A DNA stretch of 56,342 bases, filler included, from Mitosporidium daphniae (taxonomy: Eukaryota): the NCBI RefSeq assembly GCF_000760515.2. It is 2 parts of 2 records of this genome, joined end to end, with 100 filler letters (N's around TTAATTAATTAA, not from the genome) between each part and the next. Parts side by side here need not be neighbours in the genome. Positions count along the whole stretch, not along the records: positions 1 to 28,248 come from NW_013546163.1; 1 more part is not named here. One strand, given 5' to 3'. The translations under genes were made by a program, and so were the position numbers. The notes under the pieces are model-generated. The model did not search any database and was not told the origin of the DNA. It saw only the letters and a program-made list of their open reading frames with translations. Positions 4,164 through 34,588 of this stretch are shown one piece after another; positions within the stretch are counted from its first letter, which is position 1; every line of letters starts with the position of its first letter.

Positions 4164-5870
4164 TTATTTATTAACATCGACCTGGTCTTTCTGGAGTATT
4201 GTCTCGATGTGACGTCCAGTTATCTGATGATACAACTCCTTGACATCTGCACACACAGACTCAAAATGACTCGATGAGTCGTAGGAGCGGGAGATGAAAA
4301 GATTTTGGGGGCAAGAGCTGTTCTTTGCCGGCACGCAATAATTGGAGATGAAGACAAAGCTACAATCAACTCAATGGTAGAGGCTTACCATTCCAGAACT
4401 GGACCAAGTAGTGCTAGCGCTGATGAGATTTCATCAATAGGGTCCAAGTGCTCCTGTTCCTGCAACGTGCTAATATAGGCAAGGAAAAAAGGAGACGGAG
4501 CCACACCATGTGCATGTGAAAGCACCGTTATATACATATCTAGCGATAACCCAAAGACATGGCCTACCTGATAGCCGAAGCAGCTCGCGCTGTGGGATGA
4601 TAATTTGTAACGAGTCAATACCCCCTGTGTGCGGCACTGGGCCAGGTAGGATACAAACGGCTCGAATGATTTTTGATTTTGTTTCCACAAATGAAGGAAA
4701 ATATGAAGGATCTCCGATCACTCCTCGCCTGCACTGAAACGTACCGATGGGAGAAGATAAATTTGCTGCTGGATGGCTGTTAGATGCTTCTTTTCCAGCA
4801 CCATTAGAATGTACTTCCACAGGAACGGTCCGCACCCCGGAAATAACCTGACCGTGCTCATTTGCTTGTTCAAGCAGCACAACGTCACCTACATTAAGCA
4901 TGTAGGTGCCTCCATGAACTGCGCCCAATCTGCGTGTGAGAATAACCCTCTCACCTTGCAAATGCCTGGGAAAGGTCGCCAAGACCGAAAAGTGGGTAAA
5001 TGAATGGAGATTTCCCAAATCTTGTTACCGAATTCATATAAAGAGCGATGGCATTGCATGTAGGAAGAGCCTCCCGTGTGAGATATCTATGCCATCAACG
5101 AACATCCTTACGAATCATCGCTTTGTAATGCTAGAGCGTGGCCAATAAAGTCCTGAGCGCTCCTAGCAAGCCCGTATTTTTCATAGAGGGCGGCCATCGA
5201 ATAAGTGGCTAGTTCTAAAAGTAAATGCAATGGTCAATAGCTGGAAAACATATAATAATTGGGCAACAACCAGAAAATGACATGCTCAGGTTGAAGAATA
5301 GGAAAATTGCCTACGAGAACATACTTTTTTTTTCTTCCTCTCCGTGCTCAGCAGAGGAGCTCCTCCGTATAAAGTCGAAAAACTTGTATGCTCGCCGCTT
5401 CTCGAACAATCCGAACAGGGGAGAGAGAACTGTTTCCATCTCCGTTGCAGGTACTTTGTATATGTGTCCATCACGATACACAAAGGCGCCATCGATTTGA
5501 CGAAACTCTAGGTATTTTGTCACCGTCGTCAAGGCTAGAATTTGTGCAAAATCGCCTGCTGCCATCAGAAGCTTGGGAACGGTGTCGATGTAATACTCGC
5601 GTGGAGGTCCAAGGAGGGCGCCCCCTTTTGCGGTGTACTTGGCAGGCAATTCGGCGTTCAACAATTTTTCATAAATCTAGAAAAGCATATAACGCAGTGT
5701 GCTACTTGGCCAATTGAGAGCGATGTACAGGCACCTCCGTAATATGAGTTGCGGTCAATATGGAGGATGCGATGGCCCTCCTTGGAAAGAAGGCTGCTTA
5801 TGATGCACTCTACCAATCCCGTTCCTAGTACGATATAGTCATATTGGTTCGTATCGCCATTCTGGGCCAT
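4164..5870 (-). CDS. GDI1: Rab GDP-dissociation inhibitor, multi-exon
   Basis: YDYIVLGTGLVECIISSLLS...HIDRNSYYGG; PKLLMAAG; RLGAVHGGTYMLN; IGDPSYF; SLQIIIPQ. Confidence 0.93.
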
Positions 5871-6022
5871 TAGCAACGTAAGTGTCAAACCATATGGAAG
5901 AATTGTAAAAAATTAAGGCAAAAAGTAAATTTTATTGGGCCGCAAATTCAATATAACCCGGTCTCCTCATATGACACGTGAGTCATGATACGCAGTGCGT
6001 CATTCATCTAGAAATAAGCAAG

Positions 6023-6097
6023 TATTTCAGAATATGCCAGCAGGCGGTTGAACCATGAATTGCTCTTAAGACCGTCGTGATAATAGTCATCATAATT
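6023..6097 (-). ncRNA. snR73: Box C/D snoRNA, snR73/SNORD35-like (LSU Cm2959, yeast numbering)
   Basis: C box ATGATGA 6093-6087 and D box CTGA 6030-6027. 12-nt antisense to LSU AGACCGUCGUGA (6069-6080). The +5 rule from a degenerate D' (AAGA) hits the C of AGAC. Confidence 0.8.
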
Positions 6098-6253
6098 GTA
6101 CTCACCTTTTACAAATGTACATGCACGGCTGGCAGTTCCGGAGAAACTCAGCTGACAGGCTCAATTGATATTTTGTGAGCTGGCTAAAGCACTCTCAAAG
6201 GAGATTATGCGATATGGGAAACGGTCTATTTTGCAAAGTATGAGGATTGCCTA

Positions 6254-6328
6254 AGTCTCAGCAAAAATACAACATCATGGAAATGAATCAGACATATGCT
6301 TGTCTCTTATTTTTTTCGTCATCAACTT
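6254..6328 (-). ncRNA. snR74: Box C/D snoRNA, snR74/SNORD27-like (18S Am28)
   Basis: C TGATGA 6324-6319, D' CTGA 6291-6288, C' ATGATGT, D CTGA 6261-6258. 14-nt antisense to 18S 5' end CAUAUGCUUGUCUC; +5 position is A28. Confidence 0.9.
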
Positions 6329-6368
6329 ACTAAAAGTAAGAAAGCTAGAAAGAAGGGATAATAGTTGT

Positions 6369-6444
6369 TTTGTCAGACAGCATGAATGGATATTGTGTTA
6401 TTTCATCATCATGAAATATGGCTCGTCATCTTGTCATCATTCAA
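6369..6444 (-). ncRNA. snR75: Box C/D snoRNA, snR75-like (LSU Gm2288)
   Basis: C ATGATGA 6440-6434 and D CTGA 6376-6373. Antisense to LSU CUCGUCAUCU (6422-6431; +5 is G from a degenerate D' CATA). A second 12-nt match to neighbouring LSU GCAUGAAUGGAU lies at 6380-6391. Confidence 0.85.
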
Positions 6445-6543
6445 ATGTGAAGAAAGAAACTTACCTTTAATTAGTAGCACACTACATAAGAACTGCTTGT
6501 GATGATGGGTTCCCAAAAGCTAACCCCAGGCAATTCTAAAATA

Positions 6544-6611
6544 AGACTCGGCCAAAAAGTATCATCAAATGAAATATCAGCACCCAGTGCTCAATTGTTG
6601 TACATCATTGT
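6544..6611 (-). ncRNA. snR76: Box C/D snoRNA, snR76/SNORD88-like (LSU Cm2197)
   Basis: C ATGATGT 6608-6602, D' CTGA 6580-6577, C' TGATGA 6567-6562, probable D CCGA 6551-6548. Antisense to LSU CCCAGUGCUC (6583-6592); +5 is C. Confidence 0.8.
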
Positions 6612-6656
6612 CTTACCTATAAGTAAGATGATGATGATGAGAATGGAAAATGATCG

Positions 6657-6737
6657 TATGTCAGAATAGCCGCAAAATTTCATCACTAATCAGCCGGTAA
6701 TTCCAGCGTATAACGTATGATAGCAATCATCATTCAC
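6657..6737 (-). ncRNA. snR77: Box C/D snoRNA, snR77/SNORD65-like (18S Um578)
   Basis: C ATGATGA 6733-6727, D' CTGA 6693-6690, C' GTGATGA, D CTGA 6664-6661. 13-nt antisense to 18S CGGUAAUUCCAGC; +5 is the U of GGU. Confidence 0.9.
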
Positions 6738-6784
6738 ACGAGAAAACGGGTAGGATTCATACCTAAGCATAAGGAAATGCAATC

Positions 6785-6858
6785 AAAGTCAGAATATAAA
6801 TGAAAATCACTAGATTCAGATACTCTAGTCCGAATATATATAGTTGTGCATCACTCCT
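6785..6858 (-). ncRNA. snR78: Box C/D snoRNA, snR78/SNORD52-like (LSU Um2421)
   Basis: C GTGATGC 6854-6848, D' CTGA 6819-6816, D CTGA 6792-6789. Antisense to LSU ACUCUAGU(CCGA) at 6822-6833; +5 is the U of GACU. Confidence 0.8.
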
Positions 6859-7101
6859 TGAATGATTCCTACCTTTGGTTTGATAAAAAATTAGTAATCT
6901 ACAACTCTTACATTAAAAATACCAGGGTCCTCACACAATGCTTAATTTAAATTTAAAATTTTAAAGTTTGATTGGTTTGGGGATGTTCCATTTTGAAATT
7001 TTTTTGATATTGCAATGCCCCAATTGGGTTAGTTATCCTCGAATAATATGCCGTTTTACTTTATTTAACCTTTTCCTTTCTAGTCACGCATAATTAAAGA
7101 A

Positions 7102-8737
7102 ATGGGAATCAGCTCGATTATTGAAGGTCAGGTGTACATGAAGGAGAGAAGGAGCTTTTTCCGCGAAAACTGGAACAAAAAATATCTTGTTCTCAGAGAA
7201 TCCACATTGGGCATACATAAGGACAAGAGCGATACAAATGCTGTCTTTGTACTGCTCCTAAACGACGTTATCAATATCGATCGGCGGTCAAATAGGCCCT
7301 ATTGTTTAGAGTTGCAATTGGCCAGCTTAAAGCGATCTATGATGTTTGCATTTGATTCTGAAGAAGAAATGGTTAAATGGATGAACTCTCTAAAAAAGGT
7401 TTGGCGTTTGAAATATTATCCGTGATTTACGCTATGCTTTTTCGATTGCTTTTCTTACCATCTTAGTATTGTTCAAAGCTGGCGTGTGTCTCTGGTCCCA
7501 CTTCGTTCCGCCACAACTTGCACATTGGGTTTGATCCGAATACAGGATCGTTTACGGGGCTCCCAGAGTCATGGAAGAGAATGCTGAAGGCCTCGAGCAT
7601 TACAAAGGAGGATATCGAATCGAACCCAGATGTAGGTCCATTGCATATTTATATGCCTTTGTCTAGGTCGTCTTAGATGTGCTTGAATTTTATACAAAAG
7701 AGCAACACGCGGATGCGCAAGCAGGCGTAGAAAAAGAGGAAAAGCCAAAGCCATCATCTCCAGATCTTCATATGAAATCTCCAGGTTCCTCGCCTGAATT
7801 TGACTCGACCCACGATTCCATGGTAAAGGTGCCAGTTGCCGACGAGCTCCCATATATGGTTGCTTTAAGGCAATTGTGCACCCCCGGAAATCCCGCCGAA
7901 ATTTACACAAAATTAAAGAGGATTGGCCAGGGTGCTTCTGGAGAAGTTTTTGTCGGCCAAGAGAAAAAAACCGGCGCCCTTGTGGCAATTAAGCAAATGG
8001 ATATGAGGTATCAACAAAAACCCGCGTTGATTATAAACGAGATTTCGATCCTCAAAGCCTCACACCATCCAAATATTGTCAACTACTTGGACAGTTATCT
8101 GATGGGGTCCCAGCTTTGGCTTATCATTGAATATATGGAAGGAGGGGCCCTTACAGAGCTTCTCGAGTATCGGGGCAATTTGGATGAGCCAGATATTGCC
8201 ACAATCTCAAATGAGATTATAAAAGGACTTCATCATCTCCACTCGCGTTCGATCATACATCGAGATATCAAAAGCGACAACATCCTACTTGGTGCTGGAG
8301 GACAGGTGAAAATCTCTGATTTTGGATTTTGTGCAGAACTTTCTGCAGATCGAAGGAAAAGGGCCACCATGGTAGGCACGCCCTATTGGATGGCGCCTGA
8401 AATAATCAAGCAAAAGAGGTATGATGCAAGTGTGGATGTCTGGTCACTCGGTATTATGATGATTGAAATGATAGAAGGAGAGCCGCCCTATCTTTCGGAG
8501 GAACCACTAAAGGCGCTCTATCTGATTGCTACCAATGGGAGCCCTACTTTGAGGCACCCTGAGCGAATGTCTGCCCCGCTGATACAATTTGTGGATTCCT
8601 GTTTGAAAGTTAATGTGGCTACTAGAGCAAAAACCCAGGATCTTCTTCGTCATCCATTTCTCGTAAAAAATTCACGCGACTCCAAAACGCTGATCCCTCT
8701 TTTTAGCTCAATAATTAAAGAAGGCCTAATTTCATGA
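7102..8737 (+). CDS. CLA4: Cla4-type PAK kinase (PH + CRIB + kinase); introns about 7399-7466 and 7632-7666
   Basis: PH-like exon (WNKKYLVLRE...KWMNSL); CRIB VSGPTSFRHNLHIGFDPNTGSFTGLPESW; kinase IGQGASG, HRDIKSDN, DFG and MVGTPYWMAPE. Confidence 0.9.
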
Positions 8738-28248: not shown

Positions 28249-28348
28249 NNNNNNNNNNNNNNNNNNNNNNNNNNNNNNNNNNNNNNNNNNNNTTAATTAA
28301 TTAANNNNNNNNNNNNNNNNNNNNNNNNNNNNNNNNNNNNNNNNNNNN
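28249..28348. other. Assembly spacer: N-run with TTAATTAATTAA six-frame stop linker
   Basis: 100-nt N44-TTAATTAATTAA-N44 block; the genes on both sides are truncated. Confidence 0.9.
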
Positions 28349-32325: not shown

Positions 32326-34588
32326 ATGAGCTCTGGGAGCTCATTGTCCAAGCCTCCTCTTGCGGCCAAAGACGCTGCCGCGTTTAAGTCGCTGCTGATG
32401 CTCTTTGAAAACAAGCTATACAAAAAGGCTCTGAAACAAGCCGAACAAATCCTGCGTGCACATCCCGAACATGGCGGTATTTCCCCATTTTTATTGTAGA
32501 GACACTTGCTGTAAAGGGGCTGGTGTTGGCGCACCTTGCAATGGACTCCACATCCTCCACAGACAAAGATTCTTCTGCAGCCAAAAATGAAGCCGCGGCC
32601 AGGGTTACACCAGAGGTGGACCCGCTGGAGTTGATCAAGGCCGGAGTAAGACTTGATACAACATCGTTCATATGTTGGCAGGTGCTCGGTCTTTATCATC
32701 GTCTGAAACGGAATTTTGCCGAAACTTTACGCTGCTACAAAACTGCTCTTCGTTTCGAACCACATCAACCTACCATTTTAAGGGACTCTGCGCTTCTCCA
32801 AGCGCACGAGCGTCAGTTTGCAGCTCTTGTTGAGTCACGTAACATGCTTTTGAGGATCAACGCCAGTGAGGGTGGCGCTGCAAATGCTGGCCAAATGTGG
32901 CGTGCGCTTTCCATCGCCTATGCTATGGCCGGCCAGCCGGAGGCCGCCTTGCGCGCACTTGAGGCCTCCTTCGCTACAAAGGAACAGCAGCAAGACACTC
33001 ACTGTGCCCCGGGGACGCGTTCAGAGTTGATGCGGTTTAAATGGAAGCTAGAGGCTCTCGCTGGCCACCCTACTACGGCCAGGGTCACTGATAATGTAAA
33101 CATTGAGGACGCCCCCATTGCAGACGCGGACTTACAGGACGAGGCTGTTGCGCTATATAGCCCGGATGAAACCCTCCGAGCATTGGCTTGTTCACGGCGC
33201 CTTGAGCGCAATCCAGATTTGCCCGTCAGTTCGGCCTTGGTCGAGCACCAGAATGCTGTTGTGGGGCACACTTCAGATGCATTGGCACTCGGTCGAAAAC
33301 TAGAGGTTGCCGTCAAGACTGGCAACATCGAATCTTTTGGTCTTGTTTTCACTTCACTGTTGAATGAGGGTTTACTGGAGAGAGCCCCCATTTCTCTATT
33401 CAAGCTGGTGACCATCGCGGCGTTTGATCAGAAACCTTCGCACATCGATGTGCGGACCATACACCAAACCATCTCGAATCTGCTTTCCGAACGCCAGTCA
33501 TCACTTGCTACTGTGATTTTTCAAGCGCTACTACTGGACGCCATCGGAAACAGCATTGAAGCTCTCGGTCTGATTTCTAGCGCAATTGGCCCCCACCACC
33601 CCAAAGGCGTCGTTGCCGAGGGCGATACCCAAGTTTCTGTCGACAATGACACCGTGAACGCTATTGCCCCGGCTACGGAAAACATTCATTTGCTTGTAGA
33701 TGCCTTCACAGTGCGTGCCAAAATACACAAGGTATTTTATTTTGTTAACGCTAGCACCTGGGACTGTATCGTGCAGCAGCAGATGATGCTATCGCGGCTT
33801 CAAAGCTTGCTTGTGGCGATCGTTCGCTCACGATATTTGCAATTCGGCATTTGCTTCGTGCAGACAAAGTCTCCGAGGTGGAGCATATCCATCTTCCAAT
33901 TCTTTTCAAGAAGCCTATGGAAGAAATCCGCGAACTTCAAGTGGCATGGTATCTCGTTCGTGCAGGCGAGGCATTTTGGCGCTTGGGACGCACCGATGAG
34001 GCTGTCGAGGCATGGTCCTTTGTCGCATTGTCCTTCCTTGGCACTTCGCTTGCTGATGATGTTTTTGATTTTCATGGCTATGCGCTTCGCCGATGCGCCC
34101 TTGTGGGGTACATGGAATTGCTCACGGCAACGCCGCCTTCCAAAGCCCCTATACTCCACAAACATCCCACCTGGCAGCGTGCAGCATGCAACCTGCTGCA
34201 TGCTGCAATTGTGTCCACTAACAAAGACTCCACTGGAGATGCCATAATTGATGGAGCATCATCCCGTTCAAGCTCTTTCCCCAGTTGTCAAACGAGCAGC
34301 TCAAAAACGACAACAAACGGCTCCGTCGTTGCAGACCAAATAGCAAAGCTCGTTCAAGAGCTCGCTCATTTTGAGCACGAGGCGTNCCCGTCGATACCGC
34401 CAAAATTGGCTCTACGCCGCCGGATTCTTCTTTGGCTATACGAGGATAATGGACATCGCATCCTGCCGTTTTTGCGCACGGAACGCTTCCCTAAAAAACT
34501 CGCCACGCGCGTTGAACCCTTAATTTCTGAGCTACAAAAGCATGGTTGCGGCACGGGGCTCCTGCCCCTCATATTTACACTTGTCTAA
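32326..34588 (+). CDS. NAT1: NatA auxiliary subunit Naa15/Nat1 (divergent); 23-nt introns 32477-32499 and 33732-33754
   Basis: FENKLYKKALKQAEQILRAHPEHG|ETLAVKGL; SFICWQVLGLYHR...CYKTALRF; ILRDSALLQ; DDVFDFHGYALRR. Confidence 0.88.

Follow-up and report, generated by a model that had tools for sequence, protein, structure and literature searches.

The genome of the water-flea parasite Mitosporidium daphniae very probably contains its own copy of a known fungal snoRNA cluster, in which one non-coding host would yield six C/D snoRNAs, each likely from its own intron and each predicted to direct one rRNA 2'-O-methylation, and which would have been present in the fungal ancestor. This reading is drawn from the sequence of the window, by which we mean the whole stretch of 56,342 nt (filler included) that was analysed. 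The cluster spans 6008-6872 on the minus strand (865 nt), in a gap of approximately 0.9 kb between two protein genes, and the kilobase around it has the highest AT content of any in the window (GC 0.355).

Of the two flanking genes, the Rab GDI gene has a spliced ORF of 486 aa that matches Pfam GDI and is 47% identical over 468 columns to P0136; no M. daphniae GDI record is among 62 homologues. The divergent kinase gene encodes an N-terminal PH-like part and a CRIB-like motif, and we take its product to be a PAK/Cla4-like kinase. AAAAAAATTTCAAAA at 7006-6993 (-), upstream of the cluster, resembles what we take to be the fungal RRPE ribosome-biogenesis promoter motif. TGACTCACGTGTCA at 5985-5972 (-), approximately 100 nt before the GDI ATG, presumably includes AP-1-like and E-box-like sites. 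The window also holds two runs of 44 N (28249-28348) and single N at 34386 and 35190, none of them near the cluster.

Table 1. Features of the cluster and its flanks, in the order of the minus strand. The snoRNA rows run from box C to box D, and their second coordinate is the start of box C.
Feature	Coordinates	Strand	Details
Divergent kinase gene	7102-8737	+	ATG 7102; Pfam search covered the kinase exon
Probable first exon and AT-rich promoter	6873..7010	-	Predicted; shared with the divergent kinase gene
Predicted intron 1	6763..6872	-	110 nt, GTAGGA...CTTAT-N4-AG; abuts intron 2 without an exon
snR78 orthologue	6789..6854	-	D' guide 6833-6822; predicted to target the equivalent of LSU Um2421; Rfam E 0.017
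Predicted intron 2	6617..6762	-	146 nt, GTATGA...CTTAC-N4-AG; abuts intron 3 without an exon
snR77 orthologue	6661..6733	-	D' guide 6707-6695; predicted to target the equivalent of SSU Um578; snoR77Y E 1.7e-5
Predicted intron 3	6536..6616	-	81 nt, GTAAGA...CTTAT-N3-AG (TAG)
snR76 orthologue	6548..6608	-	Box D CCGA; D' guide 6592-6583, 10/10; predicted to target the equivalent of LSU Cm2197
Probable non-coding exon	6465..6535	-	71 nt, ends AAG; suggested by splice motifs
Predicted intron 4	6330..6464	-	135 nt; CTTAC-N4-AG ends at 6330
snR75 orthologue	6373..6440	-	D' guide 6431-6422 (D' = CATA); predicted to target the equivalent of Gm2288; Rfam E 3.5e-6
Predicted intron 5	6251..6330	-	GTAAGT; candidate 3' ends 6251 (80 nt) or 6226 (105 nt)
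snR74/U27 orthologue	6258..6322	-	D' guide 6306-6293; predicted to target the equivalent of SSU Am28; SNORD27 E 7.9e-7
Probable non-coding exon	6106..6250	-	145 or 120 nt, ends AAG
Predicted intron 6	6008..6105	-	98 nt, GTGAGT...CTTAT-N4-AG
snR73/U35 orthologue	6027..6093	-	D' guide 6080-6069 (D' = AAGA); predicted to target the equivalent of Cm2959; SNORD35 E 0.051
Probable last exon	5931..6007	-	AATAAA at 5936-5931, presumed poly(A) signal
Rab GDI gene	4164..5870	-	Downstream; ATG 5870, 6 introns; used to calibrate splice signals

Sequence inspection recovers six minus-strand cassettes with a box C to box D length of 61-73 nt, all of which show RUGAUGA and CUGA boxes 50-100 nt apart once variants are included. 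Box C departs from the consensus in snR78 (GTGATGC), snR76 (ATGATGT) and snR74 (ATGACGA), and the D' boxes of snR75 and snR73 are degenerate. Rfam returns no match at gathering score anywhere in the window; judged by E-value on 5400-7500, the 28 matches listed include SNORD27, the counterpart of snR74 (47.5 bits; gathering score 52), snR75 (39.7 bits; gathering score 40), and, likewise below gathering score, snoR77Y and snR78. SNORD35, which we take to be a member of the snR73 clan, is matched below gathering score when a 266-nt stretch is searched. The third cassette draws generic C/D models alone and no family-specific match; its identification as snR76 rests on its boxes and on a 10-nt guide beside a perfect D', and it also has a 7-bp closing stem. 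Since all six fall below the Rfam cut-off, a standard Rfam scan misses every one of them, and some reported losses may therefore be failures of detection. A scan that joins boxes to guides gave six rows, equivalent to five distinct cassettes, whereas 2000 shuffles averaged 0.074 and never exceeded 2. Elsewhere in the window the scan picked up three weak loci; it missed snR74 because the corresponding target was lacking in the scan. Read along the strand, the cassettes fall in the order snR78-77-76-75-74-73, one of the 720 possible orders of six. We also observed that snR75 keeps a 12-nt extra rRNA-pairing element (6391-6380, minus strand), a kind of pairing that boosts methylation in yeast (PMC3116282).

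The guides were tested on 16 pieces of rDNA from other eukaryotes. These come from 18 loci fetched with two snR75 elements, among which L028 and L037 were dropped as non-rDNA because they lack the 12-nt rRNA spacer retained in the others; all 18 (L025-L042) belong to prokaryotic assemblies, and the eukaryotic LSU rDNA in 16 of them reflects contamination or misassembly of those records. On this foreign rDNA, complements of at least 10 nt, which stop 1-2 nt short of D or D', place the +5 nucleotide on a known site for snR78, snR77, snR76 and snR73. The snR76 guide points to a C at offset -88 in 7/10 rows and that of snR78 to a U at offset +136 in 8/12, while the other rows miss the site by one position, are broken up by insertions or match only in part at other places. 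The snR75 guide points to a G at offset +3. If this G is set to 2288, then -88 and +136 become 2197 and 2421, which are the yeast methylation sites of snR76 and snR78 as given in PMC8307265 and PMC3116282. The snR75 match itself is circular, since its own guides had served to fetch these loci. The snR73 guide pairs at 12/12 positions in five loci with a C as target (+676 in L041, as against +674 expected from yeast), and that of snR77 at 13/13 in two of four loci (L036, L042) with a U as target; the snR74 guide was compared only with the consensus of Rfam and with the 5' end of a single, divergent SSU. In a search of 5850-7100 with seven loci, no complement of at least 10 nt to the snR72 target region was found, the site being placed where we presume it to lie on the rRNA, and snR72 was found in the cluster neither as a seventh member nor fused to snR78. 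As it is missing from the cluster in most fungi (PMC3596301), snR72 is no defining feature of what is termed cluster I.

The preliminary description of this DNA had proposed six minus-strand C/D cassettes with rRNA guides, in the above order and without an snR72 equivalent. The boxes, guides and shuffle control bear out the first point, the guide targets together with Rfam names for five of the six the second, and the search of 5850-7100 the third. Its call for Rfam support is answered in part, with five families named by E-value and none at gathering score, snR76 being without a family match. Likewise, its assignment of the +5 nucleotides to yeast methylation sites holds for the 2197/2288/2421 spacing, snR73 and snR77, with snR75 being circular and snR74 placed by the Rfam consensus. 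It makes no mention of exon-less or base-sharing junctions, nor of splice sites that overlap closing stems. All six guides are intact and in the +5 register. This, along with the functionality of divergent D' boxes in yeast (PMC3116282), makes it extremely improbable that the cluster is in decay and has lost its expression, as might be surmised from the CCGA box D, the degenerate D' boxes and the sub-threshold Rfam scores; the four strain variants within 6008-6872, too few for a test, also miss the boxes, guides and splice sites.

To characterize the splice signals of this genome we used nine introns of the GDI and CCT-eta genes, which are backed by restored reading frames: 7/9 are 24-29 nt long, all nine end in YAG, and 7/9 carry TNAY 3-5 nt before the AG. 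In the cluster, a donor lies 8-29 nt ahead of box C in every cassette, and a branch motif and AG like those of the genome's own introns follow five of the six. The pattern CTTAY-N3-4-AG occurs five times in the 865-nt cluster against 0.13 expected, and a composite acceptor-donor motif three times against 0.06 expected, both patterns having been chosen post hoc; a window-wide test of branch-motif-to-AG spacing shows no enrichment. Each snoRNA likely sits in its own predicted intron, and the intron-nested form that had been claimed for the cluster finds support in the donor and acceptor motifs around the cassettes. One might instead suppose that real snoRNAs are cut by an RNase III-type nuclease, the route used by S. 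cerevisiae (PMC5033589), from an unspliced or singly spliced precursor with vestigial splice motifs, especially as GT and AG dinucleotides abound in this AT-rich region and the spacer after snR76 folds into a hairpin. Given the regular placement of the donors and of the branch motifs with their AGs, and a spacer hairpin no more stable than those of shuffles (z -0.65), we consider this quite unlikely.

Under the intronic reading, the acceptor abuts or shares a base with the next donor in three places (6763/6762, 6617/6616 and the shared G at 6330). Downstream of box D, those at 6763 and 6617 are each the sole AG ahead of the following donor, which they directly touch, leaving no room for an exon after snR78 and snR77. 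A third exon-less junction would arise if intron 3 ended instead at the AAG at 6465, with a length of 152 nt. At the junction of introns 4 and 5, G6330 probably serves as both the last base of the former and the first G of the donor of the latter, resulting in a nested (-1) junction; the alternative end of intron 4 at 6345, which would yield a 14-nt exon, is without a CTTAC-type motif. For intron 5 there are 11 AGs ahead of the following donor, and the TNAY-N3-5 motif accompanies none of them. Two further candidates were set aside. An extra 39-nt intron at 6911-6873 is doubtful, as it ends in AAG unlike all nine calibration introns, and a strain variant at 6893 (in one contig) alters its branch motif. 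An H/ACA snoRNA in 6106-6250 was rejected, with no H/ACA match in Rfam, fold z-scores of 0.81 to -0.37 and no recurring target.

We posit that a Pol II transcript would run from approximately 6960 to the poly(A) signal at 5936; the longest ATG-initiated ORF in the modelled spliced host RNA is 19 aa. Introns 1-3 would be removed stepwise from 5' to 3' through the two AG|GT sites without an exon, the manner of splicing to which RT-PCR and EST data point for adjoining snoRNA introns elsewhere (PMC3596301). Removal of intron 4 would then take away the G of the intron 5 donor, which the final G of the upstream exon (ending in AAG) would restore, as happens in Candida cluster II (PMC5033589); recursive and nested splicing of such hosts has been shown (PMC5033589, PMC3596301). 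The lariats would then go through the standard route of debranching and trimming (PMC10557570), down to 65-80 nt. These introns could, in principle, form part of the Rab GDI 5' UTR, with no separate non-coding host, for the two are on the same strand, the last acceptor at 6008 is only 137 nt from the GDI ATG, and UTR-hosted snoRNAs are known in Candida and S. pombe (PMC5033589, PMC4138321). However, those 137 nt contain five upstream ATGs and an AATAAA, and the published hosts of the cluster are independent non-coding RNAs (PMC2780460, PMC4138321), making such an arrangement unlikely.

Returning to the separate non-coding host, the first 8 nt of its snR76, snR74 and snR73 introns pair through 6-7 bp (7 bp for the snR76 donor) with the bases directly following box D (p = 0.007, 0.002 and 0.032, respectively). 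Across all six introns the combined Fisher p is 7e-5 and a permutation of cognate partners gives p = 0.015; such pairing occurs in one of the nine protein-gene introns. With branch motif and acceptor held fixed, p rises to 0.14 on the four introns long enough, so part of the pairing is generic complementarity between donor and branch site. Since the donor doubles as the 5' arm of the closing stem in these three introns, the snoRNP probably closes only after splicing; stem closure and splicing would compete, with splicing presumably coming first. A further-reaching and tentative reading, which we regard as doubtful as a whole, combines introns shrunk to snoRNA size by genome compaction, a chain of junctions that fixes the order of release, a cluster older than all living fungi and possible exon-less pairs in protein genes. 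Here, the 81-nt snR76 and 80-nt snR74 introns would use the 5' splice site as one arm of the closing stem and the branch/acceptor region as the other, whereby debranching alone would give a nearly mature snoRNA in a mirtron-like route. If real, such introns would test the minimum length of a host intron.

Two protein genes of the window offer observations on exon-less pairs. The CCT-eta gene (13.8-15.6 kb) encodes a product 100% identical to a Mitosporidium daphniae protein, the next match being 76% and the rest around 50% identical. Its 58-nt intron 2 (15436-15379, minus strand) has an internal TAG|GTA that divides it into pieces of 31 and 27 nt, both of typical size. The 8-residue spacer obtained when all 58 nt are removed is present in 106 of the 107 matching homologues (120 examined), and there is therefore no exon between the two pieces; intron 2 is possibly an exon-less intron pair. 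The public CCT-eta protein model is two residues short at this intron. In a PQ-loop gene, a candidate abutting pair of 30 and 39 nt is seen at 17731-17663 on the minus strand (GTAAGT...CTCAC-N4-AG|GTATGC...CAG).

Single contigs from three studies span the cluster and part of the GDI gene with near-identical sequence. This, together with intron ends in the genome's own style and the low Rfam scores expected of a distant vertical homologue, renders it very improbable that the cluster came from another fungus through contamination, misassembly or horizontal transfer and is uninformative on the fungal ancestor, a notion that could appeal to its being seen in only one genome and to one metagenome scan that found no cluster-bearing relative. 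The pattern used in that scan, an snR75-snR74 pair with 67-127 nt spacing, was narrow and exact, and the scan hence gives no evidence of absence; the sole locus it returned (L043) is a chance match inside a bacterial gene. Among viral contigs there are 24 matches to the snR74 guide, one with a box C motif upstream; this candidate scores weakly (E 0.066), reads as coding DNA and was rejected, and the viral contigs gave no rDNA match. Four of 24 sequencing runs were examined; they contain no splice joints and are DNA-like in appearance.

Mitosporidium daphniae is filed under Microsporidia by NCBI and is their first branch, with Microsporidia and Rozellomycota forming the sister group of other fungi (PMC5381614). 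The claim of an early-diverging source thus stands on this placement and the CCT-eta identity. The order shared with yeast in turn implies that the last common ancestor of Microsporidia/Rozellomycota and the other fungi already had the cluster with its six members. The earlier suggestion that it lies near the fungal root is supported to this extent, the dating resting on one genome. The published accounts disagree on its age: PMC5824354 has it form at the root of Ascomycota from scattered genes, and PMC3596301 reports it also from Basidiomycota and Rhizopus, in the latter without snR76. As it had thus been reported outside Dikarya, the M. daphniae copy extends the depth of the cluster rather than revealing it; the cluster and its exon-less junctions are already published for other fungi, and depth is the new part. 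The main text of PMC5824354 is without the word 'Rozella', and a literature search with most subscription journals outside its scope found no description of the cluster in Mitosporidium or Rozellomycota. With regard to this disagreement, a six-member, same-order copy in the sister lineage of other fungi speaks for an ancestral cluster with later break-up, one that snR72 either joined afterwards or has often left. It also times the loss of snoRNAs in Microsporidia, for clustered, intronic and SSU-targeting guides would still have been present when Mitosporidium split off. Plant U15 and snoR7 reportedly show the same linkage as snR75 and snR76, a pair whose origin may then be older. The available text of PMC5122169 confirms the U15-snoR7 cluster and not the link to yeast.

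Within the same phylum, the snoRNAs of Encephalitozoon and Nosema (PMC5499648) are similarly compact C/D guides. However, they amount to nine snoRNA-like genes, among which no guide for an SSU site was found, and that study considered intronic ncRNAs improbable, in contrast to the two SSU guides and predicted intronic location of the M. daphniae cluster. Two C/D families have been found in Microsporidia (PMC5824354), and PMC6349667 discusses possible intronic snoRNAs in microsporidia, its available text not extending to the snR78-73 cluster. The S. cerevisiae snR78-snR72 polycistron (PMC5033589) has its first six members in the same order and with the same targets, but differs in being intronless, Rnt1-processed and endowed with a seventh member. 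Clusters II and III of Candida, Debaryomyces and Yarrowia (PMC5033589, PMC3596301) likewise show AG|GT junctions and a shared G; there, recursive or nested splicing is backed by RNA data, whereas it is only predicted in M. daphniae, where the case concerns cluster I in a genome whose ordinary introns are mostly 24-29 nt.

The closest parallel is the intronic form of fungal cluster I in Neurospora (PMC2780460), S. pombe (PMC4138321) and Candida (PMC5033589), surveyed in PMC3596301, which has the same members, order and strand, and one snoRNA per intron of a non-coding host, as predicted here. The M. daphniae version is shorter, with 865 nt as opposed to approximately 1.5 kb in Ascomycota (PMC5824354), and has its donors 8-29 nt from box C as against mainly 41-60 nt in Neurospora (PMC2780460). 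It has neither snR72 nor an snR78/72 fusion, and it has kept snR76, which Rhizopus and fission yeasts are reported to have lost (PMC3596301). Its lineage is much deeper than those of the other carriers of an intronic cluster I.
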